From assembly GCA_964582565.1 (NCBI GenBank), contig CAZOSY010000001.1:1-50436 (forward strand): a stretch of DNA of 50,436 nucleotides, given 5' to 3'. Every line of letters starts with the position of its first letter. Position 1 is the stretch's first letter. The translations under genes were made by a program, and so were the position numbers. The notes under the pieces were generated by a model. It was given only the letters and a program-made list of their open reading frames with translations. It had not been told where the DNA came from and ran no database searches. This DNA is from an uncultured Bacteroidales bacterium. GTDB taxonomy: Bacteria; Bacteroidota; Bacteroidia; Bacteroidales; CAZZDX01. Positions 5,564 through 27,389 of the stretch are shown here, piece by piece.

Positions 5564-6202
5564 ATGAAAAAACTTCCATCTAAAACAATTGAACGTTTAA
5601 CTCAATACAGAAGAATATTAATGCACTGCCTGGAAGGGAATTGTTTATCAAAAGGTATAAAAAATGTTTATTCGTATGAACTTGCATCCTTAATGCATAT
5701 AAACCCTTCTCATGTAAGAAGAGATTTAATGCTATTAGGATTATCAGGAAGTAAAAATAAAGGATATAATATTCAATATCTTACAGATTCAATAGGAAAT
5801 GTTTTAAATATTAATAAACAAAAGATATCTATTATTGGCATTGGTAATTTGGGAAGATTTTTTATCAATTATTTTAACTCATCAAAACAAACAAATTTTT
5901 TTATTGTTGCAGCATTTGATAATAATATTAAAAAAATTAATAAAACTATACTTGGAATACCTTGTTATGATATAAATGAATTATCAAAAATTATAGAAAA
6001 AGAAAATATATCTATTTGCATTTTAACAGTTCCTCCTGTAGCAGCCAAAAAAATTGCTGATATCTTGGTTAATACCAAAATTAAAGGTATATTAAATTAT
6101 ACAACTATTCCTCTTAAAATCCCGTCAAATATTCATCTTGAAGAATATGATATTATTACTTCTTTAGAAAAAACATCTTATTTTTTAAGTAATATGTTGT
6201 AA
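5564..6202 (+). CDS. rex: redox-sensing transcriptional repressor Rex
   Basis: N-terminal winged-helix region (TIERLTQYRRIL), Rossmann GxGxxG (GIGNLGRFF), 212 aa. Sits next to hydrogenase and redox genes. Confidence 0.85.
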   Translation: MKKLPSKTIERLTQYRRILMHCLEGNCLSKGIKNVYSYELASLMHINPSHVRRDLMLLGLSGSKNKGYNIQYLTDSIGNVLNINKQKISIIGIGNLGRFFINYFNSSKQTNFFIVAAFDNNIKKINKTILGIPCYDINELSKIIEKENISICILTVPPVAAKKIADILVNTKIKGILNYTTIPLKIPSNIHLEEYDIITSLEKTSYFLSNML

Positions 6203-6314: not shown

Positions 6315-7673
6315 ATGATAAAAATGAAAACAAAATTATTTATTTTACTTATGCCTGCCATCTTATGCCTAAGCATAATTAAAAGTGCAAATGCACAAAC
6401 ATGGAGTGCAGTTGGCTCAGGTTTGGATTATGGGGTAAACACCTTTGCCGTTTATAATGGAAATTTATATGCCGGCAGTGATGGGATATATAAATTATCA
6501 GATACCATCTGGACATCATTTAATAATGGAACAAATACTTTTGGAGGAGGAATTGTATATAGCTTATGTGTCAGTAATGGTAATAACTTTTATGCCGGTG
6601 GTGGCGGTTTTTTTGTACTTACTCCTGATGACAATTACTATAATTTTATAGGCAGATGGGACGGCAGTAAGTGGACTACTGTGGGCTCTGGATTAGGAAA
6701 TGATGGCTGGGGTATGGGTAGTGAAGTTTTTATACTATCTTCATACAATGGAGAATTATATGCCGGAGGCGATTTTGGTACTGCAGGAGGCGATCCTATT
6801 AATCAGCAAGAAGTTTATTATATAGCAAGTTTTGCAGGAACTGTATGTTGCTGGAATCCTGTAGGAAGCGGAATGGATGATAAGGTAACTGTGCTGACAA
6901 CAGATACAGTAAATAATCTTTTGTATGCAGGTGGCTATTTTATTACTGCCGGAGGTATAACAGTAAATCATATTGCCAAGTGGAATGGAACTGACTGGTC
7001 TGCTCTTGGAACAGGAACAGATGGCAAAGTTACAGCTTTGTGTATGCATAATGGTGAATTATATGCAGGCGGAGCATTTACTACTGCAGGAGGAGTATCT
7101 GCAAAAAATATAGCCAAATGGAACGGCAACTCATGGCAAGCTCTTGGAGCAGGAGTTGACGGACAGGTGTATTGCTTATATTCTTATAAAGGAAATCTGT
7201 ATATAGGCGGAGATAATCTTTTTTCGTTTGGAGATGACAAAAGATATATCACCAAATGGGATGGAACAACATATTCTGCCTTAGGGTCAGGAGTAGATGA
7301 CTATGTTAATTACTTCATCACTTTCAACAATGATTTATATGTTGGTGGTGCTTTTACAAACGCAGGCGGAACTCCTGTAAATCATGTAGCCAAATGGACA
7401 CCTTCCAGTGAGGTAGAAGAAAATTTTATAACTAATACGGTAAATATTTACCCTAATCCAGGCAATGGAAAGTTATCTGTAATCTCTGAAAATATCTCTG
7501 CAATATATGAAGTTGAAATATACAACATACTTGGAAAAAAAATTTATTACACACAATTCTCCGGTAAAACAAAAATTGATTTAAGCAAAGAAGCAAAAGG
7601 AGTTTATTTTTATACTTTAACTTTAAAAGGCAGAAAAGGAATTCTTGCAACAGGAAAATTAATTGTAGAATAA
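6315..7673 (+). CDS. secreted beta-propeller repeat protein with T9SS C-terminal sorting domain
   Basis: Signal peptide. At least six repeats of the form IAKWNG..W.ALG.G.DG.V.AL...NG.LYAGG.F. C-terminal domain NIYPNPGNGKLSV...GVYFYTLTL..GKLIVE. Confidence 0.75.
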   Translation: MIKMKTKLFILLMPAILCLSIIKSANAQTWSAVGSGLDYGVNTFAVYNGNLYAGSDGIYKLSDTIWTSFNNGTNTFGGGIVYSLCVSNGNNFYAGGGGFFVLTPDDNYYNFIGRWDGSKWTTVGSGLGNDGWGMGSEVFILSSYNGELYAGGDFGTAGGDPINQQEVYYIASFAGTVCCWNPVGSGMDDKVTVLTTDTVNNLLYAGGYFITAGGITVNHIAKWNGTDWSALGTGTDGKVTALCMHNGELYAGGAFTTAGGVSAKNIAKWNGNSWQALGAGVDGQVYCLYSYKGNLYIGGDNLFSFGDDKRYITKWDGTTYSALGSGVDDYVNYFITFNNDLYVGGAFTNAGGTPVNHVAKWTPSSEVEENFITNTVNIYPNPGNGKLSVISENISAIYEVEIYNILGKKIYYTQFSGKTKIDLSKEAKGVYFYTLTLKGRKGILATGKLIVE

Positions 7674-7816
7674 AAAAATTACAATTTTATATAAACAAGT
7701 TGTTCGTTTAAATATTTTATAAATTCAAACAACTGATAAAACAGACAGACAAATAGATAGATAAAAAAAATAAAAAATAAAATAAAATTTATTTGTTTAA
7801 TAAAAATTAATATTTA

Positions 7817-7824
7817 TATCTTTG
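7817..7824 (+). promoter_or_regulatory. candidate -7 promoter element (TATCTTTG) for the Mrp-Mbx operon
   Basis: TAnnTTTG match 228 nt upstream of the ATG at 8052. A palindromic repeat block (about 7861-7990) lies in the putative leader. Confidence 0.25.
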
Positions 7825-8051
7825 CGTTTTTGTGTTGTTAATTCTTTAACAAAAAATTATTGTAAGCGTTCACAGAAACCTGTGCTGAAACTTGTGCTGA
7901 ATTCATTTCAGTATCCATGTCATACTGAACTTGTTTCAGGATTGTTTCAGTACGCTGAAATTGGAAAAGAACGAAAAGAGTTTACGAACTAGAGGTTGTT
8001 AGAAATTATTATTAACTTATTTAAACTTAAAATATTAAATATCAATTTGAT

Positions 8052-8573
8052 ATGATTGCTAAGACTAATGAAAGGAATAATAAAGTAAAAAATTTTTGTT
8101 ATTTATTTATTATTCTCATGCTTATATGGCTTGCTCTTACTTTGAGCTTTAAGAAAGAGGAATTAATTGTAGGGTTTATTGTAAGCATTATTCTTTCTTT
8201 CGCATTATATAAAAGTTATAAAAAAATAGGATTTCCAAAATTTAGTATCAAAAGAATTGTTTATCTTTTTATTTATATATTAGTACTTTTTAAAGAAATA
8301 ATTATAGCAAATATTGATGTGGCATATAGAATTATCCATCCAAAAATGCCAATAAAGCCAGGTATTGTAATTATCAAAACTGAATTAAAACAAGATTTGG
8401 CTAAAATGATCCTTGCAAATTCTATTACTTTAACTCCAGGAACATTTACATTAGATATTAATGATGATAGTCTTTTAATTCATTGGATGAATGTAAAGAC
8501 AGATAATACAGATGAAGCAACAAAAATCATAGGTAGAAGATTTGAGAAATATTTAAAAGTGATATTTAAATAA
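8052..8573 (+). CDS. MnhE/MrpE-like subunit (MbxA position)
   Basis: Two N-terminal TM helices followed by the LANSITLTPGT motif typical of MrpE. First gene of the co-directional cluster. Confidence 0.7.
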   Translation: MIAKTNERNNKVKNFCYLFIILMLIWLALTLSFKKEELIVGFIVSIILSFALYKSYKKIGFPKFSIKRIVYLFIYILVLFKEIIIANIDVAYRIIHPKMPIKPGIVIIKTELKQDLAKMILANSITLTPGTFTLDINDDSLLIHWMNVKTDNTDEATKIIGRRFEKYLKVIFK

Positions 8574-8612
8574 ATAATTAATAAGACATTTTAAAAAAGA
8601 TATTGTTTTCTG

Positions 8613-8879
8613 ATGGCAAAAAATTATAAACAATTAGCTGAAAGCATGAAAGCATTGGGACACCCTATACGTCTGCAGATTATAGCAGGTCTTGTTAAAA
8701 ATGAATGTAATGTTACACAGATTCAACAATCTATAGGTGTGCCTCAATCTACCATTTCTCAGCATTTGAGAATACTTAAAAATGCAGGAATAATAGAAGG
8801 AAGAAGAGAAAGAACAAATGTGTGTTATAAAGTGATTAATAATTGGATAAAAGAAGTAATTGAAAAGATAGATAAATAA
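8613..8879 (+). CDS. ArsR/SmtB-family winged-helix transcriptional regulator embedded in the operon
   Basis: LGHPIRLQIIAGL...VTQIQQSIGVPQSTISQHLRILKNAGIIEGRRE is the canonical ArsR HTH pattern. 88 aa. Confidence 0.85.
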   Translation: MAKNYKQLAESMKALGHPIRLQIIAGLVKNECNVTQIQQSIGVPQSTISQHLRILKNAGIIEGRRERTNVCYKVINNWIKEVIEKIDK

Positions 8880-8943
8880 TATTTTTTTAATATAAAATAT
8901 TGTATTATTTGAATATACAAATATTAAGAGATAAAAAAGAACC

Positions 8944-9198
8944 ATGAATACAATGATATTTTTTATAATTATTATAGGCATTAGTATTATTCTTTGTATT
9001 TTACGTATGATAAAAGGTCCTACTGCTGCTGACAGAGCAATAGCAGTAGATACAGTAACAACTATTATTGTTGCTCTATTAGTATTACTTGGTTTTGTTT
9101 TCAAAAGATATATTTATCTGGACGTTTCTTTAGTGTATTCAATAATATCATTTGTTGGTTTAATTGCTATTGCAAGATATTTAGAAAAAGGAATATAA
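8944..9198 (+). CDS. MnhF/MrpF-like subunit (MbxB position)
   Basis: 84 aa, 3 TM helices, GPTAADRAIAVDT motif. Confidence 0.75.
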   Translation: MNTMIFFIIIIGISIILCILRMIKGPTAADRAIAVDTVTTIIVALLVLLGFVFKRYIYLDVSLVYSIISFVGLIAIARYLEKGI

Positions 9199-9201
9199 TT
9201 T

Positions 9202-9567
9202 ATGAATATAAATATTGAATTAATTGGAATTATAGTTACAGGAATTGGAATTTTATTCCTTTTTTTGGGTGGCCTTGGAATTTATAGAATGCCTGATGTA
9301 TATAATAGAGTCCAGGCAGGAACAAAATGTACTACTTTAGGCGCTTTTTTAACTATTATAGGTGTAGGGATAATGCAGCCTGAATGGTTCTGGAAAACAC
9401 TCATCATAGCTTTATTTATACTTCTTTCTAATCCTATTTCAAGCCATGCTTTAGGAAGAGCTTCACTTAAAAGTGGTATTTCTTTGTGGCACAAAAGTGT
9501 TGTAAATAAAACTAAAGAATTTAAAGAATCTGAAAAAACTGAAAAGTTAAAAAAATCTAAAGAATAA
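9202..9567 (+). CDS. MnhG/MrpG-like subunit (MbxC position)
   Basis: LGGLGIYRMPDVYNRVQAGTKCTTLG motif, 3 TM helices, Lys/Glu-rich tail. Confidence 0.8.
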   Translation: MNINIELIGIIVTGIGILFLFLGGLGIYRMPDVYNRVQAGTKCTTLGAFLTIIGVGIMQPEWFWKTLIIALFILLSNPISSHALGRASLKSGISLWHKSVVNKTKEFKESEKTEKLKKSKE

Positions 9568-9569
9568 AT

Positions 9570-9809
9570 ATGATTATAATAGTTTCTATATTAATTTTTT
9601 TAATGCTTGTATCAGCAATTGCAGCAGTGATTTTTAAAGATTTATTGAGTGCAGTTATTGCTTCATGTGTTGTTAGTTTGATAGCAGCTGTTCTTTTTTA
9701 TTTCTTGCAGGCACCGGATGTAGCTATGGCAGAAGCTGCTATTGGAGCCGCATTGATAACTGCTATTTTCGTTATTGCTCTTAGAAGAACAAAAAGGTTT
9801 GAAGAATGA
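9570..9809 (+). CDS. small membrane subunit, MbhD/MbxD-like (DUF4040-type)
   Basis: 79 aa, 3 TM helices, QAPDVAMAEAAIGAAL motif. The stop overlaps the next start (ATGA). Confidence 0.65.
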   Translation: MIIIVSILIFLMLVSAIAAVIFKDLLSAVIASCVVSLIAAVLFYFLQAPDVAMAEAAIGAALITAIFVIALRRTKRFEE

Positions 9810-10492
9810 GAAAAATAATTAGTGCCATATTATTAATTGTTATTGCTGGAGGAATTACATTATCCATTATGGAAATTCCTTTTGGTGTAAACAAAGCAAA
9901 GGTAGGTGAGTATTATATAAATAAAGGAAGAGAAGAAACAGGGGCAACAAATATTGTTACTTCAGTAGTGTTGGATTACCGTGGCTTTGATACTCTTGGT
10001 GAAATAACTATACTTTTTTTAGCAGCTCTAAGCGTAGCAGCAATTCTAAGCTTAAGCAGAAAAAGAAATGATAAAAAAGAAAAAATAGAACCGGCAAGCT
10101 TAATATTATATACCGGATGTAGATTTTTATTCCCAATACTTCTTCTTGTGGGTTCATATATTTTTATTCATGGGCATCTTACTCCGGGAGGAGGTTTTCA
10201 GGGAGGAGCAATTATTGCCTCTGCATACCTTCTAATATATTTATCCTGCCCAGGAAAAAGAATAAATGAAAAATATAGTAAGCTAGTAGAATCATTGTCA
10301 GGATTAATTTTTATAGCATTGGGATTGATAGGGCTGGTAATAGGCGGAGAATTTCTTTTTAATTTTTTACCAAAAGGAACTCTTGGTACATTATTTAGTG
10401 CCGGCATTATCCCAATAATTTATATTGCTATTGGATTAAAAGTTGGCTCAGAATTAACCGGTATTATTGATAACTTAATAGAAGAAAGCTAA
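9806..10492 (+). CDS. MnhB/MrpB-domain subunit (MbxF position)
   Basis: TGATNIVTSVVLDYRGFDTLGE motif typical of MnhB. Polytopic. TAATG overlap with the next gene. Confidence 0.8.
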   Translation: MRKIISAILLIVIAGGITLSIMEIPFGVNKAKVGEYYINKGREETGATNIVTSVVLDYRGFDTLGEITILFLAALSVAAILSLSRKRNDKKEKIEPASLILYTGCRFLFPILLLVGSYIFIHGHLTPGGGFQGGAIIASAYLLIYLSCPGKRINEKYSKLVESLSGLIFIALGLIGLVIGGEFLFNFLPKGTLGTLFSAGIIPIIYIAIGLKVGSELTGIIDNLIEES

Positions 10493-10851
10493 TGAATTTT
10501 TTAAATGACTACATTTATTACATAGGAGCTTTTAGTCTGGTTTTTATAGGACTATATGTTTTGTTGGTTAAAAAAAATCTTATTAAGGTTATTATTGGTT
10601 TAAATATTCTTGATACAGGAGTATATTTATTTCTTGTAGCTATTGGTTATATTAATAATGGTACTGCTCCGATATTTTCAAAACCTGGATTAAACCCGAA
10701 AAATATGGTAGATCCCGTACCACAAGCATTAGTACTAACATCTATTGTGATAGGAGTGGCTATCTTATCATTAGCTCTTACATTAGCTATAAGATTATAT
10801 AAACATTATGGAACTCTTAATTTACGCAAAATAAAAGAACAAAGATGGTAA
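10492..10851 (+). CDS. MnhC/NuoK-like subunit (MbxG position)
   Basis: 119 aa, 3 TM helices. Its position between the MnhB-like and MnhD-like genes fits this assignment. Confidence 0.75.
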   Translation: MNFLNDYIYYIGAFSLVFIGLYVLLVKKNLIKVIIGLNILDTGVYLFLVAIGYINNGTAPIFSKPGLNPKNMVDPVPQALVLTSIVIGVAILSLALTLAIRLYKHYGTLNLRKIKEQRW

Positions 10852-12326
10852 ACCTAATATTAAATCCAGTACTTTTAATTGTTGTGCCTTTAGGTCTTGC
10901 CTTTTCTATTCCTTTGTTCGGACTTATTTCGAAAAAGATAGAAAAGTTTATCCCAACTGCAGCTCTTCTCTTTAATCTTATTGTTTCTGTAATACTCATT
11001 CCAAAAGTATTAATAAAACCTATAAATGTTTCTTTAGGTGGATTTTTGCCTCCCTTCTGTATTAATTTGGTAGCAGGACCTGTTGCAATTATATTTGTCG
11101 CACTTATTGCTTTAGTTGGTCTCTTGGTTTCAATTTATGCATGGGATTATATTAAAGAAGGTGCTAAAGAAAAATATCATATCATTTATCTTTTGCTTTT
11201 GATAGGAGCGACAGGTGTTGTTCTTACCGGAGATATATTTAATCTTTTTGTTTTTTTTGAGATTCTTTGTATTTCTTCTTATTCTCTTGTAGCTTATTAT
11301 AGCGATAAAGCCGGTACAGAATCTGCAATAAAATATCTTATACAAGGGTCTGTTGGTTCCGCTTTTATACTTATAGGTATTGGATTGCTTTATGGTCAGT
11401 TCGGAACACTTAATATGGCAGATATCGCAAATCAAATTCATTCTATTCATTCAATTTCTATCTTCCTACCTCTAGTTCTATTGATTACAGGATTTGGTAT
11501 AGAAGCAGCTATTTTCCCTTTAAACGCCTGGCTGCCTGATGCACATTCGTCTGCACCTTCATCAATAAGCGCTGTACTTTCAGGTATAGCTATTGAAGTC
11601 GGACTTTATGCTGTTGTCAGGATTGTATTTACCATTTTTGGCGCTTCAAGTTTATTAATGTTCTTTTTATACTTAGGCGTTTTAACATTATTAATAGGTG
11701 AAATATGTGCTTTCAGTCAGGATAATATTAAAAGAATGCTTGCATATTCCAGTATAGGACAAATTGGACTTATAGTGTTTGCCTTGTCAATTAATACGAC
11801 TTATGGAGTAGCAGGAGGTCTTTTTCAGTTGGTAAATCATACCCTGTCTAAAGCATTATTGTTTTTAGCTGTAGGTTATATGATTTACCGTAGTGGCTCT
11901 ATGAATATATCTTCTTTTGAAGGAATGGGTAAAAAAATGCCATATACTTCATTTGCTTTTACAATTGGAGCATTTTCACTTGTAGGATTACCGCCATTTA
12001 TTGGATTCCCAAGTAAATTTATGATTGTCAAGGCAGCTTTGTTTAAACACGAAATATTATTTACTGTGCTTATTGCACTTGTGCTTTTTGCTACAATAAT
12101 TGAAGGTGCTTATTTTTTCCGTGTAATACAAGTGATTTACTTTAAAGGGAAAAAGGATGACCTGAAGCGAGAAAGAGCACCTATTAGTGCATTAATACCT
12201 TTGTTTATTTTTGTTGGTTTGATAGTGTTTATAGGAGTTTATCCAAAAATTATGACAGACATATTAAACTCAGCAGCTTCAGAACTTTTAAATAGATTAG
12301 ATTATATAAAAAGTGTAATACAATGA
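10845..12326 (+). CDS. antiporter-like subunit, MnhD/NuoN family (MbxH position)
   Basis: Proton-conducting transporter motif FPLNAWLPDAHSSAPSSISAVLSG. About 14 TM helices. Confidence 0.85.
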   Translation: MVNLILNPVLLIVVPLGLAFSIPLFGLISKKIEKFIPTAALLFNLIVSVILIPKVLIKPINVSLGGFLPPFCINLVAGPVAIIFVALIALVGLLVSIYAWDYIKEGAKEKYHIIYLLLLIGATGVVLTGDIFNLFVFFEILCISSYSLVAYYSDKAGTESAIKYLIQGSVGSAFILIGIGLLYGQFGTLNMADIANQIHSIHSISIFLPLVLLITGFGIEAAIFPLNAWLPDAHSSAPSSISAVLSGIAIEVGLYAVVRIVFTIFGASSLLMFFLYLGVLTLLIGEICAFSQDNIKRMLAYSSIGQIGLIVFALSINTTYGVAGGLFQLVNHTLSKALLFLAVGYMIYRSGSMNISSFEGMGKKMPYTSFAFTIGAFSLVGLPPFIGFPSKFMIVKAALFKHEILFTVLIALVLFATIIEGAYFFRVIQVIYFKGKKDDLKRERAPISALIPLFIFVGLIVFIGVYPKIMTDILNSAASELLNRLDYIKSVIQ

Positions 12327-14179
12327 TTTTAGAAACTTTACTTATAATTGCTTTTGGGGGTGCATTAATAACGTATCTTTTAGGAAAAATATCTAAAAAA
12401 ACTAGAAATATTTCTGCTGTAGTTGTTTTATTGGCTTTAGTAGTTATTATTACTTTTCTTTATAATATTTCTTCCAAAGAAATTTTTTATATAGGATTTT
12501 TAAAAAATCTTTCACTCGTTTTAAGAATAAATACATTTTCATGGCTTTTTGCTATAACTATATCAGTTGTGAGTGCACTTTCAATTATTTTTTCTCTAAG
12601 CTATATAAAAGGTAAAGAAAGAACAAATTTCTATTATTTGATGATGATGCTTGTAGATGCAAGTATGATTGGTATTGTGCTTGCCGGTGATTTTGTTACT
12701 TTTTATATCTTCTGGGAGATAATGTCGTGGAGTGCATTTCTTTTGATAAGTTATAATAGAGGTGCTGCCCTCGCTGCAGGGATGAAATATATCATTATGT
12801 CTGTTATCGGTTCTATGGCTATGCTTATTGGAATATTATCCCTTTATGCAAATTATGGAACATTGAATATATCAGAACTTTCTGCTTTTATGACCTCTGC
12901 TTCTTCCGTATATATTTTGTTTATTTTGATAACTTTTGGAATTGGATTTGGAGTTAAGAGTGCAATAATACCTTTACATGCTTGGCTTCCGGATGCTCAT
13001 TCACAAGCACCTTCTCCATTTTCTGCAGTACTTTCGGGAATATTGATAAAAATGGGAATATATGGCTTTATCCTTATTTTTTATGTTATAGTCGGTTTAA
13101 AAAATTTCCTTGTCTTAGGTAGTAATTGGTCCAGCTTTCATTATATTCTCTGTTGGGTAGGTGTTATTACAATAGTAATTCCCAGTTTTATTGCTATACT
13201 ACAAGATGATGCAAAAAGACTTTTAGCTTGGTCCAGCATAGGACAGATTGGTTATATAATACTTGGTATCTCCTTTGGAACAAGTTTAGGTTTTGCTGGA
13301 GGCACATTCCATATCATCAATCATGCAATTTTTAAGGCACTCCTATTTTTAGCTGTTGGTGCAGTAGAATATAGAACAGGAACAAGAGATTTGAATTCAT
13401 TGGGAGGACTAATAAAAAAAATGCCTATAACTTTTTTAGTAGTTTTAATCGGTGCTTTTGGGCTTATTGGAGTTCCTTTGACAAATGGTTTTGTTTCAAA
13501 ATGGATGATTTATAAAACCTTGATACTTGAGGGTCATCCTTTCCTGGCCTTTTTTGCATTGTTGGGAACTTGGGCAGCTATACTTTACACTTATAAATTT
13601 ATTCATAATATTTTCTTAGGACAACTTCAGGAAAAACACGAAAATATAAAAAGAGCACCATTTAGCATGCAGCTTCCAATGATTATTCTTGCATTTGCAA
13701 TTATTCTCTTTGGCATACTACCAGGTATTCCACTTAAGATTATCAACACCATTGGAACTTCTTTTGGTTTTGAATCTTTAAATGTAAACATCTGGGGAAT
13801 TGCTTCTGATACGGGAACATTAAATACTGTAAATATTTTTATGGCTATCTTAGTAATAGGCGTAATTTTGTGGTTGATTTTTAAAGCAGCTCGCAAATCA
13901 GTAAAAATAAATCAGTATGATAACTATGCAGCTGGTTTTTCTATACCTAAAGAAAAATATAATTATACAGTTAATTTTTATAATCCTTTATATAGAATAA
14001 TTACACCTTATCTTAAAGATTTTATTGATGATTTTTATATGTGGATTTCACGAGAAATAAAAAAAATGTCTGTTTCGGTAAGACGCATATATTCAGGTGA
14101 TATAGGATATTATATTATGTACATAATGCTATTTTTGGCATTATTAATTTTTGTTCAAATAAAATGGAACTTATGGTAA
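12323..14179 (+). CDS. second antiporter-like subunit, NuoL/MnhA-D family (MbxH' position)
   Basis: IPLHAWLPDAHSQAPSPFSAVLSG motif. 618 aa with a C-terminal extension. ATGA overlap with the previous gene. Confidence 0.85.
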   Translation: MILETLLIIAFGGALITYLLGKISKKTRNISAVVVLLALVVIITFLYNISSKEIFYIGFLKNLSLVLRINTFSWLFAITISVVSALSIIFSLSYIKGKERTNFYYLMMMLVDASMIGIVLAGDFVTFYIFWEIMSWSAFLLISYNRGAALAAGMKYIIMSVIGSMAMLIGILSLYANYGTLNISELSAFMTSASSVYILFILITFGIGFGVKSAIIPLHAWLPDAHSQAPSPFSAVLSGILIKMGIYGFILIFYVIVGLKNFLVLGSNWSSFHYILCWVGVITIVIPSFIAILQDDAKRLLAWSSIGQIGYIILGISFGTSLGFAGGTFHIINHAIFKALLFLAVGAVEYRTGTRDLNSLGGLIKKMPITFLVVLIGAFGLIGVPLTNGFVSKWMIYKTLILEGHPFLAFFALLGTWAAILYTYKFIHNIFLGQLQEKHENIKRAPFSMQLPMIILAFAIILFGILPGIPLKIINTIGTSFGFESLNVNIWGIASDTGTLNTVNIFMAILVIGVILWLIFKAARKSVKINQYDNYAAGFSIPKEKYNYTVNFYNPLYRIITPYLKDFIDDFYMWISREIKKMSVSVRRIYSGDIGYYIMYIMLFLALLIFVQIKWNLW

Positions 14180-15066
14180 TTATGATATTTAAAATAATAT
14201 TGATGATATTTTTAGCATTTATCATTGGAATATTTTTCCTTGGATTAGCAAGAAAAATAATTGCAAGAATTCAATGGAGATATGGACCTCCTATTACTCA
14301 ACCAATTATTGATATAATTAAACTGTTTAATCAAGGAAGTATGAGTCATGGTGTTTTATTCAATTTTGGAATAATTCTTTCTCTAACTGGCTCTATCGTG
14401 TTAACATTGTTCCTTCCTATGGGGAAAATGTGCCCGTTAAGTAGCTCCGGGGGACTTCTTGTAATTATATATATTATGCTTTTAATACCCTTAGGGATGG
14501 CATTGAGTAGTGGTGAGGCAGCTAATCCAAATGCAAGTATTGGTATATCAAGAAAATTTATTTTGGCTCTGGGTTATGAGGTACCATTGTTGCTTATTTT
14601 TCTTGCAGTTATGACCCATTATGATACTATTTCAATAGTTAAAATAGTAAAAATACAATCCAATACAGGATGGTCTTTAACATCCTTACCCTTATTATTG
14701 TCCGGTATTGCTTATATATTAATACTTCCCGCAATATTGGGTGTAAGACCTTTTGATATTGTTAAAGCCCCACAGGAAATTTCATCAGGTCCAATGGTTG
14801 AATATGGAGGCAAATTTTTAGCTCTTGCTACCATACAACATGCTTTTAATGAATTTATTGCGCTCTCTCTTTTTGTAAATTTATTTTTAGGAGGTGCTGG
14901 TAACCCCGGATACTTCTTTTTGAAAATGTTAGTTGTATTTTTTATATACCAACTTGTGAATGCTGTATTTTTACGTTTCAGGATAGAACAGGCATTAAAA
15001 TATTTGTGGAAATGGCCAACACTGCTTGCATTAGCAGGTCTGATAATTGTTGTAATAACAAATTAA
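14164..15066 (+). CDS. NuoH/MbhM-like membrane subunit (MbxM position)
   Basis: RIQWRYGPP and EISSGPMVEYGG motifs of the NuoH/HyfC family. 8 TM helices. The true start may be an internal ATG a few codons downstream. Confidence 0.8.
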   Translation: MELMVIMIFKIILMIFLAFIIGIFFLGLARKIIARIQWRYGPPITQPIIDIIKLFNQGSMSHGVLFNFGIILSLTGSIVLTLFLPMGKMCPLSSSGGLLVIIYIMLLIPLGMALSSGEAANPNASIGISRKFILALGYEVPLLLIFLAVMTHYDTISIVKIVKIQSNTGWSLTSLPLLLSGIAYILILPAILGVRPFDIVKAPQEISSGPMVEYGGKFLALATIQHAFNEFIALSLFVNLFLGGAGNPGYFFLKMLVVFFIYQLVNAVFLRFRIEQALKYLWKWPTLLALAGLIIVVITN

Positions 15067-15074
15067 ATTAATAC

Positions 15075-15632
15075 ATGGATAGAAATAAACTTGGAAAATG
15101 GTTAAAGTCCCCGGCAAAAATGGGGCATAAATATTCGCTACATGTAGTATATTTTTGTACAGGTTGTGGAATTATGGAGGTGCCACCTTCTATCACAACA
15201 CGATGGGATGCAGAGAGATTTGGAATAATACCTGTTGCCAGTCCAAGACAAGCTAATTTATTTTTAATCACAGGATACGTATCTTTAAAAACATTAAAAG
15301 CAATTATACGCACTTATGAACAAATGCCGGAACCAAAATTTACCGTAGCACTTGGTTCTTGTCCTATAAATGGAGGAATGTATTGGGATTCTTATAATAC
15401 TATTAAACATTTAGATAAGTATATTCCTATTGACGGTTGGATTGCAGGATGTATGCCAAGACCTGAAGCTATATTCATTGGTGTAACTCATTTGTGGACT
15501 ATGATTGATAAAGAAATGGCAGATGGTTATAAAAAATACAGGAAAAATTATAAATATTACAGGGAAAATCAGGAACAAATTTATGGTAAACTTGAATGGC
15601 CACCATTATTTTCAAAGGAGGTTAAAGAATGA
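15075..15632 (+). CDS. NuoB/MbhJ-like [4Fe-4S] subunit (MbxJ position)
   Basis: Four-Cys cluster set: FCTGCGIMEV, GSCPINGG and GCMPRPEA. Confidence 0.85.
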   Translation: MDRNKLGKWLKSPAKMGHKYSLHVVYFCTGCGIMEVPPSITTRWDAERFGIIPVASPRQANLFLITGYVSLKTLKAIIRTYEQMPEPKFTVALGSCPINGGMYWDSYNTIKHLDKYIPIDGWIAGCMPRPEAIFIGVTHLWTMIDKEMADGYKKYRKNYKYYRENQEQIYGKLEWPPLFSKEVKE

Positions 15633-16153
15633 ATAAATCACTTAAAGAAAAACTTTTATCATCATTTAGTGATATTCAAATAGATATTACTGAAGATAAC
15701 AGAGTCGTTATTAATACAAAAAAAGATGATGTTATTTCTATTTTAACTTTTTTAAAAAATATAGGCTATAAACACTTAGCTCTTATTTCTTGCATTGACT
15801 GGATAGAAAAAAAAGAATTTGAGTTGGTCTATATTCTTTCTGCATATATGGATAATGATACTGAATATAAAGAGAAAGAAAAAACAAATATCTTAGTAAA
15901 AACAAAAATTTCCAGAGAAAAATCTGAATTTATCACAGTAATAAACGTTTTTACAAATGCTGAACCTTACGAACGTGAGCTGCATGAACTTTTTGGGATA
16001 TATTTTGAAGGGCATCCAAGACTAACACCGCTTTTTTTGGAACTGAAGTACAAAACACCTCCTTTTAGAAAAAATTTTGATATAAGAAAATATGTAACAG
16101 ACGTATTTGATAATATTCCTTTTGTGGAAGATAGAAAAGAAAAAGAAAAATAA
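15629..16153 (+). CDS. NuoC/MbhK-like subunit (MbxK position)
   Basis: ERELHELFGIYFEGHP motif. ATGA overlap with the upstream gene. Confidence 0.8.
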   Translation: MNKSLKEKLLSSFSDIQIDITEDNRVVINTKKDDVISILTFLKNIGYKHLALISCIDWIEKKEFELVYILSAYMDNDTEYKEKEKTNILVKTKISREKSEFITVINVFTNAEPYERELHELFGIYFEGHPRLTPLFLELKYKTPPFRKNFDIRKYVTDVFDNIPFVEDRKEKEK

Positions 16154-17250
16154 TGAGAGAAATAGAACTATATTTTGGTCCACAGCACCTTGGAATGGTT
16201 GGTAACTTTAGCATTACATTAAATGTTGAAGGTGACCGTATCTTAAAAGCTGCTGCTAATCCCGGGTTCCTACATCGCGGATTTGAAAAACTTATGGAAC
16301 AAAGAACATGGATACAAAATTTTCCATTAGTATGCAGGATAAATGTTGTGGAACCTGATCCTATGGAATTAATGTATGCTATGGGTGTTGAGAAATTAGC
16401 TAATATTAAAATTCCTGAAAGAGCAAAGTATATTAGAAGTATTTATCTTGAGCTTGCTAGAATTGCTTCTCATTTGTTTGGTTTATGGGCATATTCCAAT
16501 ATGTTAGGTTTTGATACTGTTGCACAATGGGCAATGTATCACCGCGATCTTGTACTGGACCTTTTTGAAGAACTTACCGGTGGTAGAGTTTACCATATAT
16601 ATATTTGGCCAGGTGGTGTAAGACGCGATTTTCCTGAAGGATTTAAAGATAAAATAGTTAAAACATTACATACTATTGGTGGTTGTGTGCCTGATTATGA
16701 TAATACATTTTTTAACAATCGAACATTTTACAAAAGATCCAAAAATATAGGAATAGTAACACGGAAAGAAGCTGAAGAAATGGGAGGAGTTGGGCAGGTT
16801 ATGAGAGCAACAGGTATGAAATATGATATTAGGAAAATTGAACCTTATGCTGCTTATGATAAAGTGGATTGGGAAATACCTACTAGAAAAGATGGTGATG
16901 CGTTTTCACGCATCTGGATAGTACGTGATGAAATGATTGAAAGCGTTCATATGATATTTAAGCTGCTCGATAAAATGCCCGAAGGAGAGGTTTTTAATAA
17001 AATGCCTAATCCTTTCAAATGGAATATCCCAAAAGGAGAGGCTTATGTAAGATGTGAATCTTCAAGAGGAGAATTAGGTCTTTATATGGTTAGTAATGGC
17101 AAAGATAAACCGTATCGTGTGCATTTTAGAACACCTTCTTATTCGCACGGATTAACAATATTGGAAAAGGCATTAGTAAATGAAAGTGTTGCTGATGTAG
17201 GTAATATAATGATAAGTTTATATGTAACGGCTCCTGAAATAGACAGATAA
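16153..17250 (+). CDS. NuoD/MbxL-like catalytic-type subunit without Ni-Fe cysteine ligands
   Basis: GPQHLG, FLHRGFEKL and CESSRGELGLYM motifs of the NuoD / [NiFe] group-4 large-subunit fold. The RxCGxC box reads CRINVVEP. The C-terminus reads VTAPEIDR and has no Cys. Confidence 0.85.
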   Translation: MREIELYFGPQHLGMVGNFSITLNVEGDRILKAAANPGFLHRGFEKLMEQRTWIQNFPLVCRINVVEPDPMELMYAMGVEKLANIKIPERAKYIRSIYLELARIASHLFGLWAYSNMLGFDTVAQWAMYHRDLVLDLFEELTGGRVYHIYIWPGGVRRDFPEGFKDKIVKTLHTIGGCVPDYDNTFFNNRTFYKRSKNIGIVTRKEAEEMGGVGQVMRATGMKYDIRKIEPYAAYDKVDWEIPTRKDGDAFSRIWIVRDEMIESVHMIFKLLDKMPEGEVFNKMPNPFKWNIPKGEAYVRCESSRGELGLYMVSNGKDKPYRVHFRTPSYSHGLTILEKALVNESVADVGNIMISLYVTAPEIDR

Positions 17251-17266
17251 AATAGAGGATAAAAAA

Positions 17267-19123
17267 ATGATTAAAACAAGTATTTTAACTCCATTTAAGG
17301 CTATAAGGTTTCTTTTTAAAAAACCAAAGACATTAAGATTCCCTTTTGAACAGAAGGATACGGCATTGAGATACAGAGGTTTTCATCTTAATGATTGGGA
17401 TAAGTGTACTGGCTGCGGTAATTGTGCTGATATTTGTCCTAATGAGGCTATTAAAATGGTTGAGATACCAGAAATAACACCTAATCCTAAAGAAGGTATG
17501 AAGAATGAAAGACCTGAAATTGACTATGGTAGATGTTGTTTTTGCGGCTTATGTGTTGATATTTGTCCTCCCGGTTCTCTCCGTCTTTCAAGAGATTATC
17601 TACATATTCATTTTGATACAAAAAGTTTTGTTTTTATTCCAAAAGATGAAAAAACAGACAAAGAAAATTTTCTTGATAAAAAAGATTATTCTATATTTAA
17701 AGCAAGTTTGTCACATAGAAAGAAGGATTACGAGGGATTTTCTTCTGACCTTAAATATTCATTATTTGAACCAGAACGTATAATTATGCCTCAGGTAAAA
17801 CCCGAAGAACGTAAACTCTCCTTTATAGAACAAGTTATAGGTTACAGTAAAGAAGAGGCAAAAATGGAGGCCTCAAGATGTCTGGAATGTAAATTATGTG
17901 AAGAGGCCTGCCCTGCACACCTTAAAATTTCTGATTACATCAAGGCAATTTATGAAGACAAACCAGACGAATCATTGAAAAAGATTTATGAGGACAACCC
18001 AATTCCATCAATCTGTGGAAGAATATGTATGGCTCATTGTGAAGATGCCTGTTCAATCGGGAAAAGAGGCGATTCTCTTGCTATAAGATGGATAAAAAGA
18101 TATGCTGCTGATACTATTCAGGATTTTAAATCCACTTTAGAGCTCAAGCCTGCTAAGTCTAACGGTAAAAAAGTAGCAGTTGTCGGTGCCGGACCAGGTG
18201 GTTTATCAGTATCTTATTTCTTAAGACTAAAGGGCTATGAAGTTACAGTATTTGATTCTTTATCAGGAGGAGGTGGAGCCATAAGGATAGGACCGCCAAT
18301 TTATAGATTACCAATAGAGGCAATAGATAAAGATGTGAATTATATAAGCTCTTTGGGAGTTGAGTTTAAATTTAATACAACCATTGGGAAAGATATTTTA
18401 TTTGAAGATATTTTAAAAAATTATGAAGTAGTTTATCTCGGAATAGGTACTTTTGTGAGTCGGTCGACGAGAGTGAAAAATGCGGAAAAATGTTTGTTGG
18501 CACTAAATTTCTTAAAAGAGAATAAAATAGGTGAAGGAGTTAAAGTGGGTAAAGAAATTATAGTAATAGGTGGAGGTAATGTTGCTATGGATACTGCCAG
18601 AGAAGCACTTCGTCTGCAATATATCCAATATCCTAAAGAAGAAGCTATTACAAAGACAGTATCCCTGGAAGATTGGGATATAATGCCAGCAACAGATGAA
18701 GAAATTAAAGAGGCAAAAGAAGAAGGAATACAATTCAATCCTGCATGGGGACCAAAAGAAGTTGTCCTTGATGAAAAAGGAAATATTAAAGGATTGTTAT
18801 GCAAAAAGGTTAAATCAGTATTTGATGAACAAAAAAGATTTTCTCCTACATTTTTTGAAGAAAAAACAATATTGCTGAAAGGTGATATGATTATTGAAGC
18901 TATCGGTCAAGGATCTGACTTTTCATTCATGCCGGAAGAATTATTTAAGAAACTTGAATTTACACCAAGAAGAAAAGTAAAAGTTGATGATAATGGTATG
19001 ACTTCTATACCAAAAATTTTTGCAGGCGGCGATATTGTAAATATTAATTTAGATGCTGTTACTGCAATTGCTGATGCAAAAGTTGCTTCACAAGGAATAG
19101 ATAATTTTTTGTCTTCTATTTAA
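17267..19123 (+). CDS. fusion protein: NuoI/MbxN-like 2x[4Fe-4S] ferredoxin domain + GltD/SudA/NfnB-like NAD(P)H-dependent FAD oxidoreductase
   Basis: N-terminal part: CTGCGNCADICP and CCFCGLCVDICP. C-terminal part: RCLECKLCEEACP, ICGRICMAHCEDAC, VAVVGAGPGGLS, IIVIGGGNVAMD and FAGGDIV. Confidence 0.85.
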   Translation: MIKTSILTPFKAIRFLFKKPKTLRFPFEQKDTALRYRGFHLNDWDKCTGCGNCADICPNEAIKMVEIPEITPNPKEGMKNERPEIDYGRCCFCGLCVDICPPGSLRLSRDYLHIHFDTKSFVFIPKDEKTDKENFLDKKDYSIFKASLSHRKKDYEGFSSDLKYSLFEPERIIMPQVKPEERKLSFIEQVIGYSKEEAKMEASRCLECKLCEEACPAHLKISDYIKAIYEDKPDESLKKIYEDNPIPSICGRICMAHCEDACSIGKRGDSLAIRWIKRYAADTIQDFKSTLELKPAKSNGKKVAVVGAGPGGLSVSYFLRLKGYEVTVFDSLSGGGGAIRIGPPIYRLPIEAIDKDVNYISSLGVEFKFNTTIGKDILFEDILKNYEVVYLGIGTFVSRSTRVKNAEKCLLALNFLKENKIGEGVKVGKEIIVIGGGNVAMDTAREALRLQYIQYPKEEAITKTVSLEDWDIMPATDEEIKEAKEEGIQFNPAWGPKEVVLDEKGNIKGLLCKKVKSVFDEQKRFSPTFFEEKTILLKGDMIIEAIGQGSDFSFMPEELFKKLEFTPRRKVKVDDNGMTSIPKIFAGGDIVNINLDAVTAIADAKVASQGIDNFLSSI

Positions 19124-19129
19124 TATAAT

Positions 19130-19521
19130 TTTTTAAAATTATTACAAACAAAAATTTTTTTAATCAATTAACAGTAACTACTGATATTCTTTTTTTACCG
19201 TCTATTTTAATAGTTAATGGTTTATTAAAACGTATATGTTTAAAATATTTAGTTCTATTGATTAATTTCTGTTTATTCAAAATATCAAAATTAATATAAT
19301 TATCAACAGATAAAGAGTTAATAGAAAAATAACATATATTCATTGAAGTTAGATTATGAAAGAAATGAGAGCCTAAAGAGGCATCAAGTGGAAAATCTTT
19401 TAAACTCATTTCAACAATAACTTTAGCATTAGATATTTGGTGCCAGGCAACAGGTATCCCAATAAATCTATCACGTGTCCCCCATCTGCATGGTCCAATC
19501 AGAACATATTTTTTATTCTTT
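19130..19521. repeat. direct repeat copy 1 (about 392 bp), near-identical to 28234-28626
   Basis: Hand alignment shows roughly a dozen differences, concentrated in the last ~80 bp. Confidence 0.9.
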
Positions 19522-19523
19522 AA
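19164..19523 (-). pseudogene. 3'-terminal fragment (about 119 codons) of the REC-PPDK_N-like gene at 28269..31238
   Basis: Translates to LKNKKYVLIGPCRWGTRDRFIGIPVAWHQISNAKVIVEMSLKDFPLDASLGSHFFHNLTS...ISVVTVN. This nearly matches the C-terminus of the 989-aa protein. The frame is closed by TAA at 19524-19526, so there is no N-terminal part. Confidence 0.85.
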
Positions 19524-20259
19524 TTATTTTTTTAACAATTGTTTTTTTATCTGTTGTTATTTTTATAAAGTAAATTCCTTTAGCTTGATTGCTAATATTT
19601 ACAAAACGAGAATTACTTTTATAAATTAAATTTCCAAAAATATTTCTGATTTCAATCTCTGTAATATTATCTCCGATAATTGTAAAATTATTTGATACAG
19701 GGTTAGGATATATTTTATAATCTTCTTCAGATTTATTAATATCTAAAATATTTATAGTAGCAGGCACCCAATCTATTAATATTAAAGAAAAACTTGGTTG
19801 GTTTGATGGTGTTATACTATCTAAAACTGAACTTTTTGTAAATGAGAAAGATGAATAATTACCTGTAGAATTTTTATCAGTAAGTTCCATCCAAACTTTA
19901 TATGTCCCATCAGCTACCAGTGTCATAAATGTCTGTGCCATCCCAAGTACATATTCGGGTTGCATGACTGTTTATTGTAGCTACTGTAATTGCATATACA
20001 GTATTATATATACTTGCTGCTGCCTCTGTTGATGCTTCCCATATATTCAAATGTATTTTCTGAGTTTGTGCGTAAGCAAGTAATGTCTTTACAAAATTAT
20101 CAGAACTATCCTCAATCCAAACAGCAAGGATATTTTTGGGGGCATAACCTCCGACAGCCGAGCTGGTGGTGGCGGTAACTGTTAAGGTTCCGTCTGTTTG
20201 TGCATTAATAACAAATGATATTAAGAAAACAAATAAAAAGGTTAATATTTTTTTTTCAT
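19513..20259 (-). pseudogene. T9SS-sorted secreted protein (DUF2271-like N-terminal part) interrupted by two frameshifts
   Basis: The C-terminal ORF 19513..19965 has a T9SS domain (KIYPNPVSNNF..GIYFIKITTD). The upstream frame encodes (M)KKKILTFLFVFLISFVINAQTDGTLTV..YAPKNILAVWIEDSSDNFVKTL..WDGTDIYDTGS*. The ATG at 20257-20259 is put out of frame by an A9 run. A second shift lies near 19912-19930. Confidence 0.55.
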
Positions 20260-20284
20260 ACTTTTAAATTTTTATATATTTTTC

Positions 20285-20322
20285 AAAAAAAAAGTAGAAA
20301 CACATTTATGAATGTCTCTACT
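20285..20322 (-). terminator. intrinsic terminator of gdhA
   Basis: On the minus strand: gtagagaca-(10-nt loop)-tgtttctac followed by T9, about 47 nt after the gdhA stop. Confidence 0.7.
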
Positions 20323-20368
20323 TTGTAAAATTAAACTTTAGTATTGTTGTATGTTTTTATCTGATATA

Positions 20369-21703: not shown

Positions 21704-21945
21704 ATTTTTAGTTATTAAGTTAAAAAAAAATTAATACTAAATGAGCAAGTATAAAAAGAGTTAAAGTCCTTTTTTAGATGTAGAATATAATAAATTTTAT
21801 ATAATAAAAGGTCTTAACCCTTTTTAAACCTGACTCTAATAAAATAAATAAATAATATGCCAAAATTATATTATATAATTTTATTATTATTAAATATTGA
21901 TATAATATAATCCATAATTGGCAATAATGTATATCAATAATATTA

Positions 21946-27387: not shown

Positions 27388-27389
27388 TT

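Follow-up and report, generated by a model that had tools for sequence, protein, structure and literature searches.

Which electron donor and which acceptor are joined by a bacterial relative of the archaeal Mbx/MBS complex is the question raised by an operon of 14 intact, tightly packed open reading frames (ORFs) at 8052-19123 (+) in a 50,436-nucleotide stretch of DNA from an uncultured Bacteroidales bacterium (contig CAZOSY010000001.1, assembly GCA_964582565.1; the whole stretch is called the window here). In the evolution of respiration, complexes of this type stand between membrane-bound hydrogenases and complex I; to our knowledge the archaeal enzyme, which is fed by ferredoxin, is the only one purified and solved so far, and the bacterial branch is biochemically uncharacterised. 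The operon belongs to a conserved bacterial sub-lineage in which the electron-input subunit, N, is fused to a pyridine-nucleotide flavoprotein and in which a link to the NADH sensor Rex is predicted; the NADH-type site and the Rex linkage lead to a concrete, testable hypothesis, namely that NADH may feed an MBS-type site for the reduction of sulfane sulfur. The complex goes unrecognised in metabolic reconstructions because its genes now carry names such as "NADH-quinone oxidoreductase subunit", "Na+/H+ antiporter subunit", and "glutamate synthase small chain"; NCBIfam would label subunit L as NuoD.

A 13-subunit operon of the Mbx/MBS type

The operon comprises 13 structural genes and one gene for an ArsR-family regulator. 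Affiliation was judged by the bit score of each structural protein against all solved structures, rather than by a tree with Ech, Hyf, Fpo, and Ehr references. All 13 proteins best match the corresponding chain of the Pyrococcus furiosus MBS (Mbx) structure, 6U8Y, whose chains outscore every Mbh, Mrp, complex I, and formate hydrogenlyase chain by margins that are mostly wide and are narrow for B and K. The gene order, A-B-C-D-E(F)-G-H-H'-M-J-K-L-N, is that of the 13-subunit Mbx/MBS set, and the locus is confirmed, as far as sequence can do so, to encode an intact 13-subunit respiratory complex of this type, a hydrogenase-derived relative of complex I. An earlier note on this DNA had proposed the 13 genes with their order and positions, the equivalence with the Mbx/MBS order, two antiporter-like subunits, and a cysteine-depleted lineage within a Bacteroidota-like genome; each of these proposals is borne out, the order by Pfam assignments and by the 6U8Y matches, and the fourteenth gene, which had been left unnamed, is that of the ArsR-type regulator.

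In the predicted layout, a Mrp-derived membrane arm (A, B, C, D, E, G, H, and H') is connected through a NuoH-like anchor, M, to a peripheral arm of J, K, L, and N, all encoded on the + strand. The first gene, mbxA (8052-8573; MnhE/MbsA-like; Pfam MNHE, 8e-42), encodes a protein that scores 149 bits against 6u8y_A vs 77 against MrpE and 69 against MbhA. The regulator gene is followed by mbxB (8944-9198; MrpF/MbsB-like; Pfam MrpF_PhaF; 6u8y_B, 71 bits vs 68.5 for MbhB), mbxC (9202-9567; MnhG/MbsC-like; PhaG_MnhG_YufB; 6u8y_C, 96 bits), and mbxD (9570-9809; MbhD/MbsD-like; the Pfam family MbhD, formerly DUF4040; 6u8y_D, 74 bits). A fused MbhE+MnhB protein is encoded by mbxE, alias F (9806-10492; Pfam MbhE and MnhB), and matches 6u8y_E over its full length with 218 bits, compared with 72 for MbhF and 50 for MbhE. 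Next come mbxG (10492-10851; MnhC/NuoK-like; Oxidored_q2; 6u8y_G, 122 bits) and the genes of the two antiporter-like subunits, both with Pfam Proton_antipo_M: mbxH (10845-12326; 6u8y_H, 356 bits vs 275 for MbhH) and mbxH' (12323-14179; 6u8y_X, which is MbsH', 301 bits). Lengths agree closely with those of the MBS counterparts (H 493/493, H' 618/618, and E 228/235 amino acids), and residues 10-610 of H' align to residues 12-615 of the 618 of MbsH', so as to cover the C-terminal extension; H' is therefore inferred to have the C-terminal lateral helix and TM15-16 of MbsH'.

The membrane anchor is encoded by mbxM (14164-15066; NuoH-like; Pfam NADHdh; 6u8y_M, 214 bits vs 85 for MbhM). The peripheral arm consists of the proximal [4Fe-4S] carrier encoded by mbxJ (15075-15632; NuoB-like; Oxidored_q6; 6u8y_J, 225 bits vs 126 for NdhK and 107 for MbhJ), the NuoC-like product of mbxK (15629-16153; Complex1_30kDa; 6u8y_K, 58 bits, the next best 50), the product of mbxL (16153-17250; resembling NuoD and the [NiFe] large subunit; Complex1_49kDa), which scores 343 bits against 6u8y_L vs 233 against Nqo4, 148 against MbhL, and 94 against HycE, and the fusion protein encoded by mbxN (17267-19123; 618 amino acids), in which a NuoI-type 2x[4Fe-4S] domain is followed by Fer4_20 and Pyr_redox_2 domains.

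The genes are packed so closely that seven junctions overlap or abut, exactly as the earlier note had described: four-nucleotide overlaps (ATGA) at 9806, 12323, and 15629, one-nucleotide overlaps (TAATG) at 10492 and 16153, and longer overlaps of 7 nt at 10845 and 16 nt at 14164. The last two depend on the choice of the first in-frame ATG, and the alignments with MbsH and MbsM begin a few residues inside the called starts of mbxH and mbxM. The only sizeable gaps, of 39 nt and 64 nt, flank the ArsR gene.

Compared with P. furiosus MBS (6U8Y; PMC7684303), a membrane-bound sulfane sulfur reductase that couples the ferredoxin-dependent reduction of polysulfide to translocation of Na+/H+, the operon has one-to-one equivalents of all subunits in the same gene order, both H and H', the fused MbsE-type subunit, the short MbsJ-type loop at the proximal cluster, no functional NiFe site, and no equivalents of the Nqo4 residues H38 and Y87. 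It differs in that MbsN (208 amino acids) is free-standing and accepts electrons from ferredoxin, whereas N here bears an extra module of about 500 residues of the NfnB/GltD type, and in that the vestigial cysteines C85 and C385 of MbsL are lost from L, which is 46% identical. With complex I (Nuo/Nqo) the operon shares homologs of NuoB, C, D, H, I, and K, antiporter-like subunits, and a course from an NAD(P)H flavin along an FeS chain to a membrane junction and ion pumps. Unlike complex I, it has a complete Mrp E/F/G/B module attached, a flavin module of the NfnB/GltD type (FAD) instead of NuoF (FMN), a CxxC motif rather than a tandem CC in the NuoB homolog, and no quinone ligands, and a Pfam scan found no NuoE/F/G, NuoA, NuoJ, or NfnA-like gene in the operon. 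Mbh, a group 4 [NiFe] hydrogenase, is set apart by its four NiFe cysteines, none of which is present here, by one antiporter-like subunit instead of two, and by separate MbhE and MbhF proteins, which are fused here. Stand-alone Mrp systems have seven subunits, a long MrpA, and no redox module, whereas the Mrp-like genes here are contiguous or overlapping with homologs of NuoH/B/C/D/I and their products score higher against MBS chains than against Mrp chains.

The earlier note regarded the operon as an oddity of one Bacteroidota genome, a view that has to be abandoned. A scan of one genome per species turned up at least 165 genomes with a relative of the fusion protein; the 80 best relatives, which were fetched and are full-length or nearly so, are 65-92% identical and come from many phyla. 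They represent Bacteroidales, Cloacimonadota, Marinimicrobia, Aerophobetes, Planctomycetota, Zixibacteria, and other groups of anoxic sediments, and carriers are widespread among metagenome-assembled genomes (MAGs) from anoxic, often sulfidic habitats. The fusion in N is present in all 80, and in every locus with enough upstream DNA, about 45 in number, tblastn with the window's proteins recovered the order A-B-C-D-E-G-H-H'-M-J-K-L-N. The same 13-gene order occurs in the complete genome of the cultured Thermosipho melanesiensis. Neighbor-joining trees gave mostly phylum-coherent clades. The host itself is supported as a member of the Bacteroidota, since the nearest genome matches of the fusion protein are uncultured Bacteroidales MAGs at 92% and 88% identity; proteins with the sorting domain of the type IX secretion system (T9SS) are encoded on both flanks of the operon (Pfam).

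The idea that separate Mrp and Nuo loci were joined into a chimera during assembly, or that the cluster is a non-functional remnant in decay, deserves practically no credence, and nothing was found in its favor. Some 45 independent loci and a cultured genome share the order, and a 100% identical fusion protein with NuoB-NuoC-NuoD upstream occurs on 12 independently assembled contigs (8 shown; JGI, ENA, and Logan); against decay speak 14 intact ORFs, MBS-like lengths, and invariant cofactor ligands. Affiliation with canonical Nuo or Mrp-only proteins and a chimeric origin were the two outcomes that the earlier note had set against its own assignment. By bit scores against solved chains the subunits side with neither canonical Nuo nor Mrp-only proteins and the cluster is not a chimera, which supports placement in the Mbx/MBS lineage.

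The kind of operon was already known. A GltD-type mbx-like operon has been described in Thermotoga and proteobacteria (Degli Esposti 2015, PMC4758237), and what appears to be newly seen is its widespread occurrence in bacteria of anoxic sediments; a literature search on MbxN, on MBS with GltD, on Rex with mbx, and on Mbx in Bacteroid lineages found nothing relevant. The name IfoAB, for an ion-translocating ferredoxin:NADH oxidoreductase, was considered and dropped, as it appears in the literature only as a two-subunit label with no matching description. The closest comparison is with the T. melanesiensis locus (ABR31076.1; L089, loci being designated here by L numbers), in which the same 13 genes stand in the same order, all 13 proteins are homologous, the last subunit has the same NuoI, Fer4_20, and FAD/NAD(P)H parts (616 vs 618 amino acids) with the same signature S-L-E, and rex lies beside the operon. 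Identity is only 34-53% per subunit, however (L 48.5%, J 51%, N 44%), and the Thermosipho operon ends in a rubrerythrin-like gene and has no internal ArsR gene, whereas the window has an ArsR gene with a palindrome and no rubrerythrin gene. Thermosipho L (L089 8882-9985) carries Cys at both positions corresponding to MbsL C85/C385 and His at that of Nqo4 H38, where the window's family has Asn, Thr/Val, and Val, and the two bacterial sub-lineages may thus differ at the active site. Judged by these comparisons, the operon is orthologous to the Thermotogae mbx-like operon and homologous to P. furiosus MBS, and the window's family is a distinct and tightly conserved sub-lineage that appears to have lost the vestigial cysteines and, in Bacteroidales, to have gained the ArsR gene.

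The trees of two subunits, which carry no support values, place the window and two related loci (L009 and L010) differently. In the neighbor-joining tree of L they group with other Bacteroidales, and in that of N they stand apart from Bacteroidales, near sequences labeled Actinomycetota, Desulfobacteraceae, and Aerophobetes; the discord could be due to gene replacement or recombination inside the operon, or to noise in the trees or the binning.

The fused subunit N and the catalytic core

Subunit N consists of three domains and a linker. Domain 1 (amino acids 1-114; 17267-17608, +) is a 2x[4Fe-4S] domain of the NuoI/MbsN type, of which residues 3-114 best match 6u8y_N (103 bits). It is joined by a linker (amino acids 115-185; 17609-17821, +), with a mean frequency of the commonest residue of 0.74 and 14 invariant positions, to domain 2 (amino acids 186-290; 17822-18136, +), a second 2x[4Fe-4S] domain, of the NfnB/GltD type (Pfam Fer4_20, 1.3e-26). 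Domain 3 (amino acids 291-618; 18137-19123, +) holds the FAD and NAD(P)H Rossmann domains and matches the large subunit of NfnI (5jca_L). Modules of the GltD/NfnB type are wires that link NAD(P)H, FAD, and 2x[4Fe-4S]. The NfnAB large subunit aligns over its entire length with residues 170-616 of N, at 259 bits for 5jca_L and 247 bits for NfnB of Thermotoga maritima (4ylf_B), and the match of the C-terminal module to GltD is weaker, at 156 bits. Among 79-80 homologs, nine cysteines are invariant in the NuoI-like part and eight in the Fer4_20 part (80/80), as are the FAD motif GxGxxG and the second-Rossmann motif GGGNVA; N should accordingly carry four [4Fe-4S] clusters and FAD. The earlier note had assigned no substrate to the complex, and in this respect it can be amended, as the NfnB/GltD-type module makes it very likely that one substrate is a pyridine nucleotide.

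The choice between NADH and NADPH is addressed by a short signature. Where NADPH-dependent NfnB has Y-R-R after the second beta-strand, N has S-L-E, preceded by an insertion of 7-9 residues, and L467-E468 is invariant (80/80). Loss of both arginines with the gain of an acidic residue is the classical mark of a preference for NADH over NADPH, and the Leu-Glu signature is suggestive of such a preference here. Relative to NfnAB/NfnI (5JCA, 4YLF), the C-terminal 450 residues thus retain both [4Fe-4S] sites, the FAD site, and the second Rossmann fold, and differ in the change from Arg-Arg to Leu-Glu, in the fusion of the module to a subunit of a membrane complex, and in the lack of NfnA from the operon. 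With this module in place of the free-standing MbsN, the donor or acceptor at N is probably NAD(H), and not, or not only, ferredoxin.

When 1.8 billion representatives were searched exhaustively, about 13 clusters at 50% identity proved to contain the fused architecture at full length. The fused proteins divide into an SLE type, comprising the window's family, the Thermosipho/PRK13984 group, and WOR-3, and the classical YRR type, a division that marks the Leu-Glu signature as a derived switch. The labels of the YRR-type full-length fusions of NuoI and GltD (P0154, P0155, and P0157-P0159) include Hydrothermae/WOR-3 and Spirochaetaceae MAGs. In NCBIfam, window N matches the whole PRK13984 profile with 703 bits, below the cutoff of 946, and Thermosipho N reaches 1195; the window's protein is thus, by profile score, of the same architecture as PRK13984 proteins and of a separate sub-lineage.

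The catalytic core is the most conserved part of the complex, with J (median identity 82%) and L (80%) ahead of all other subunits across phyla, a degree of conservation that speaks for a functional active site. None of the four NiFe-ligating cysteines is present in L. At the position of MbsL C85 it has N64, an Asn invariant in 67/67 homologs, and at that of C385 it has T359, a position occupied by V/T/A/I across homologs (67-77 sequences). The quinone ligands H38 and Y87 of Nqo4 correspond to V16 and V65, both nearly invariant as Val, and Cys61 is invariant in the window's family and absent from MbsL and Thermosipho L. In MBS, C85 and C385 of MbsL are dispensable for catalysis, and their loss here may therefore be said to lower membership of MBS in the strict sense and not similarity in function.

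Also in MBS, the MbsJ loop is three residues shorter than that of Mbh and leaves one Fe of the proximal cluster without a Cys ligand, which is the proposed catalytic centre, in a wide, hydrophobic chamber like that of complex I. Window J aligns with MbsJ without gaps over 156 residues, including the FCTGCG loop, and equals it in loop length and in four Cys positions; C31, C96, and C126 are invariant, and C28, the equivalent of the non-ligand C25 of MbsJ, is replaced in 4 of 59 homologs. J therefore keeps the short proximal-cluster loop of the MBS type, and its cluster may, as in MbsJ, have three Cys ligands and an open Fe.

Electron donor, acceptor, and direction

The linkage to Rex bears on the donor. 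Rex binds operators of 18 bp of the form TTGTGAA-N4-TTCACAA or TTGTTAA-N4-TTAACAA, and Rex regulons consist mainly of NADH-reoxidising enzymes. An operator-like palindrome, TTGTTAATTCTTTAACAA, lies at 7835-7852, 200 nt 5' of the first gene of the operon; it is the window's only perfect match to TTGTTAANNNNTTAACAA, with about 0.009 perfect matches to the degenerate form expected from base composition. Related loci totalling 1.08 Mb contain 15 Rex-like boxes, 10 of them no more than 800 nt upstream of the operon. The rex gene is a neighbor of the operon in about 18 loci. Of the 29 loci with sufficient sequence, 13 have rex as the next gene upstream on the same strand; four more loci have it immediately after N, and Thermosipho has it divergently adjacent upstream of the operon. 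In the window, rex (5564-6202, +) encodes a redox-sensing (NADH/NAD+) repressor (NCBIfam Rex, 182 bits, above cutoff; Pfam Put_DNA-bind_N and CoA_binding) and is co-directional with the operon, one gene away, the intervening gene (6315-7673) coding for a protein with a T9SS tail. Rex linkage is, on this comparison of loci, a conserved property of the operon family across phyla, and the operon, behind its predicted operator, shows the features expected of a Rex regulon at the level of sequence. Sequences 5' of the first gene could not be aligned between the window and three Bacteroidales loci (L010, L030, and L046); what is shared across phyla is the Rex box as a class of motif, and among the nearest relatives it is not conserved as aligned sequence.

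The reading preferred here is that NADH gives its electrons to FAD, that five [4Fe-4S] clusters carry them on to a site of the MBS type, and that the reduction of sulfane sulfur there is coupled to the pumping of ions. It builds on analogy with the archaeal enzyme and is held tentatively, its probability falling a little short of an even chance. A rise in the NADH/NAD+ ratio would release Rex from the promoter and induce the operon. NADH, favored over NADPH in view of the Leu-Glu signature and the Rex link, would reduce the FAD of N, and the four [4Fe-4S] clusters of that subunit would relay the electrons to the proximal cluster of J, where, as in MBS, the Fe without a Cys ligand would reduce a compound with sulfane sulfur, either polysulfide or one derived from S0, inside the L/J/M chamber. 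Translocation of H+ or Na+ through H, H', and the Mrp module would be driven by this reaction. Such a complex would be an analog of complex I, with a single fused flavoprotein domain in place of the N-module and sulfur in place of quinone. In keeping with a role in sulfur metabolism, mbxA of T. maritima, which has a 13-subunit MBX, is up 4.4-fold on S0 (PMC9431562). Coupling elements are kept as well, in that D196, E203, and E211 of MbsM, three of its five charged-axis residues, are conserved in M as D198, E205, and E213.

Several points weigh against NADH-driven sulfur reduction. The Leu-Glu signature suggests NADH specificity and does not prove it, and the acceptor is deduced only through homology to archaeal MBS, from which L has diverged to 46% identity. 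The pocket may have changed, as both MbsL cysteines have given way to N64 and T359 and an invariant C61 has appeared, while Thermosipho keeps both. M lacks two of the charged-axis residues of MbsM, E193 being replaced by Arg and E104 by Leu. The span from NADH to polysulfide, about 50-60 mV under standard conditions by our own estimate, leaves little energy for pumping. A review quotes about the same span for MBH. The downstream genes of related loci include no consistently linked sulfur-handling gene, a CoADR-like gene being found in only two loci. The literature, moreover, has the opposite direction of electron flow, from ferredoxin to NAD(P)+ (PMC4758237).

If NADH does feed sulfur reduction, many uncultured fermenters would possess an energy-conserving way of disposing of NADH on sulfur, and the feeding of NADH into a NuoB/D/H junction, as in complex I, would have been reached independently with another flavoprotein. 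Whether the complex is in that sense a "missing link", which oxidises NADH like complex I and reduces sulfur like MBS, is best put as a distinct but still doubtful possibility.

The published direction underlies the main rival, a reversible, ion-translocating ferredoxin:NAD(P)+ oxidoreductase resembling Rnf, which is unlikely on the whole and yet is attractive physiologically and merits serious consideration. Ferredoxin would dock on N, the fused flavoprotein would reduce NAD(P)+, and the membrane arm would couple the reaction to H+/Na+ transport; in reverse, NADH and the ion gradient would reduce ferredoxin for H2 production by an [FeFe] hydrogenase. Transfer of electrons from ferredoxin to NAD(P)+ is what has been proposed for the GltD-type mbx-like operon (PMC4758237), and an ion-translocating function of this kind has also been proposed for Mesotoga Mbx. 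Carriers are mostly fermentative or syntrophic anaerobes, judging by record titles, and the span from ferredoxin to NAD+, about 130 mV by our own estimate, would be enough for ion pumping. Rex control fits the reverse direction, that is, disposal of NADH via ferredoxin and H2, and the hydGFE maturase genes lie beside the locus in the window, but this adjacency is not conserved in other loci. A further difficulty is that both partners would meet at the tip of the peripheral arm, leaving the J cluster and the L/J/M chamber, which is the coupling site in every solved relative, without a substrate, and J and L are nonetheless the most conserved subunits. In P. furiosus, too, an older assignment of Mbx as a ferredoxin:NADP+ enzyme was replaced by sulfane reduction after MBS had been purified and solved.

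An NAD(P)H:menaquinone oxidoreductase is improbable. The complex would in that case be an alternative complex I, with the fused flavoprotein standing in for NuoEFG and quinone reduced in the L/J/M chamber, and its layout does follow that of complex I, from an NAD(P)H flavin module over an FeS chain to a NuoB/D/H junction with antiporter-like pumps. The resemblance of the MBS chamber, wide and hydrophobic, to that of complex I, the 233 bits of L against Nqo4, and the NCBIfam name NuoD point the same way, and the span from NADH to menaquinone would comfortably pay for pumping by our own estimate. The ligands of the quinone head group are absent, however, hydrophobic V16 and V65 standing at the places of Nqo4 H38 and Y87, J has the CxxC of hydrogenases and MBS rather than the tandem CC of complex I, no NuoA or NuoJ homolog is present in the operon, and every subunit resembles MBS far more than it does any chain of complex I or NDH.

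Less probable still, and given very little weight, is a membrane-bound enzyme of flavin-based bifurcation, in which an NfnB-like FAD would split electrons between the J/L site and a second partner such as ferredoxin with ion translocation, or of confurcation, in which electrons from NADH and ferredoxin would be combined on one acceptor. It would be the first in the complex-I superfamily to unite flavin-based electron bifurcation with membrane attachment and ion translocation, and the module is nearer to NfnB/NfnI-L (259 bits) and to the NfnB-like modules of 9n5u, 9bov, and 8oh5 than to GltD (156). Neither the operon here nor that of Thermosipho encodes an NfnA or [2Fe-2S]-type partner, however; the NADPH-type site known from Nfn is changed, the sequence speaks neither for nor against another exit for electrons, and with sulfur as acceptor the driving force would by our own estimate be too small to bifurcate to ferredoxin.

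Regulatory elements and neighboring genes

The second regulator of the locus is the ArsR/SmtB-family protein of 88 amino acids encoded at 8613-8879 (+) between mbxA and mbxB (Pfam HTH_5; NCBIfam metalloregulator ArsR/SmtB, 80 bits). P. furiosus MBS is presumably regulated by the archaeal SurR, in place of which Rex and ArsR are found here. A gene of this kind occupies the same position in five Bacteroidales loci (L009, L010, L030, L046, and L053) and in one of Desulfobacteraceae (L024), and an ArsR-type gene stands elsewhere beside the operon in three others (L012, L013, and L078). Cys32 and Cys71 of the protein are conserved in 9/9 homologs. Persulfide sensing of the BigR type was considered, as BigR (3pqj) is the best solved match at 55 bits, and was rejected, Cys42 of BigR being replaced by Ala.

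The gap between arsR and mbxB contains a 21-nt palindrome, TTGTATTATTTGAATATACAA, at 8900-8920, preceded by a conserved run of T; it is unique in the window, with 0.11 expected. Its exact core recurs at the same place in four of the Bacteroidales loci (L009 1103-1119, L010 1631-1647, L030 1657-1673, and L046 1559-1575), and variants occur in L053 and in the Desulfobacteraceae locus L024, while the flanking intergenic DNA diverges. The palindrome is probably the operator of the regulator, or else an internal promoter or attenuator, and remains a candidate in each role.

Bacteroidota use promoters other than those of the sigma-70 type, and scans of the window for sigma-70 promoters and for terminators gave counts at or below chance. 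A promoter-like site of the Bacteroidetes type, TTTG-N21-TATCTTTG, lies at 7792-7824 (+), just 5' of the Rex box, as a match to the pattern TTTG-N21-TAnnTTTG, the consensus of Bacteroides promoters. The pattern is no more frequent in the window than expected by chance (7 found, 6.4 expected), so that its placement is plausible and nothing beyond that. Between the Rex box and the first gene, the segment 7875-7955 contains short repeats, both direct and inverted, with GAAAC(C/T)TGTGCT twice, TTGTTTCAG twice, and a pair of arms CTGAA...TTCAG, none of which is conserved in L010, L030, or L046. An Rfam scan of the window found no RNA family.

Upstream of rex lie the genes for the maturases of [FeFe] hydrogenase, hydG (502-2031), hydF (2907-4112), and hydE (4387-5478), each assigned by NCBIfam (HydG, HydF, and HydE). 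The earlier note had described a redox island formed by the operon, rex, and these genes. Their adjacency in the window is real, and rex and Rex boxes recur with the operon across phyla, but HydEFG was not seen next to the operon in any other related locus. Between hydG and hydF, a segment of 875 nt (2032-2906), unusually long for this region, holds no ORF of at least 50 amino acids on either strand and no Rfam match, and just 5' of hydG an ORF of 83 amino acids (69-320, +) resembles, by eye, the small ACT-like regulators common with hydG.

Operons of the GltD-type mbx-like kind often, though not always, end with a rubrerythrin gene. On the other side of the operon no such gene is present in the window, and the next genes, on the opposite strand, are an ORF of 81 amino acids without a Pfam hit and the gene of a T9SS-tail protein. 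Downstream genes vary among related loci and include those for a CBS protein, for sulfhydrogenase-like beta/gamma subunits together with a second NuoH-like cluster, and, in a Thermotogae MAG, for Lpd. Sulfhydrogenase beta/gamma-like (AsrA/AsrB-like) genes follow the operon directly in six loci (L012, L029, L040, L042, L062, and L066), which belong to Zixibacteria and to MAGs without a phylum label, one of them clustering with Cloacimonadota in trees. Several of these loci, and the Cloacimonadota loci L033 and L038, also contain a ferredoxin and a second NuoH-like membrane cluster; a second hydrogenase-related complex thus appears to adjoin the first in the AsrA/AsrB-like loci.

Two of the contigs with an identical fusion protein (L002 and L003) carry a PPDK_N gene of about 990 codons directly 3' of the operon, with a faint Response_reg hit in L003. 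The window's own copy, at 28269-31238, shows this hit too and is separated from the operon by about 9 kb (19124-28268), an insertion or deletion at strain level; the intervening DNA encodes the 81-amino-acid ORF and the T9SS-tail protein, followed by a glutamate dehydrogenase, a Crp-like regulator, a PPDK_N paralog (23197-26172), a phosphoesterase, and a nucleotidyltransferase.

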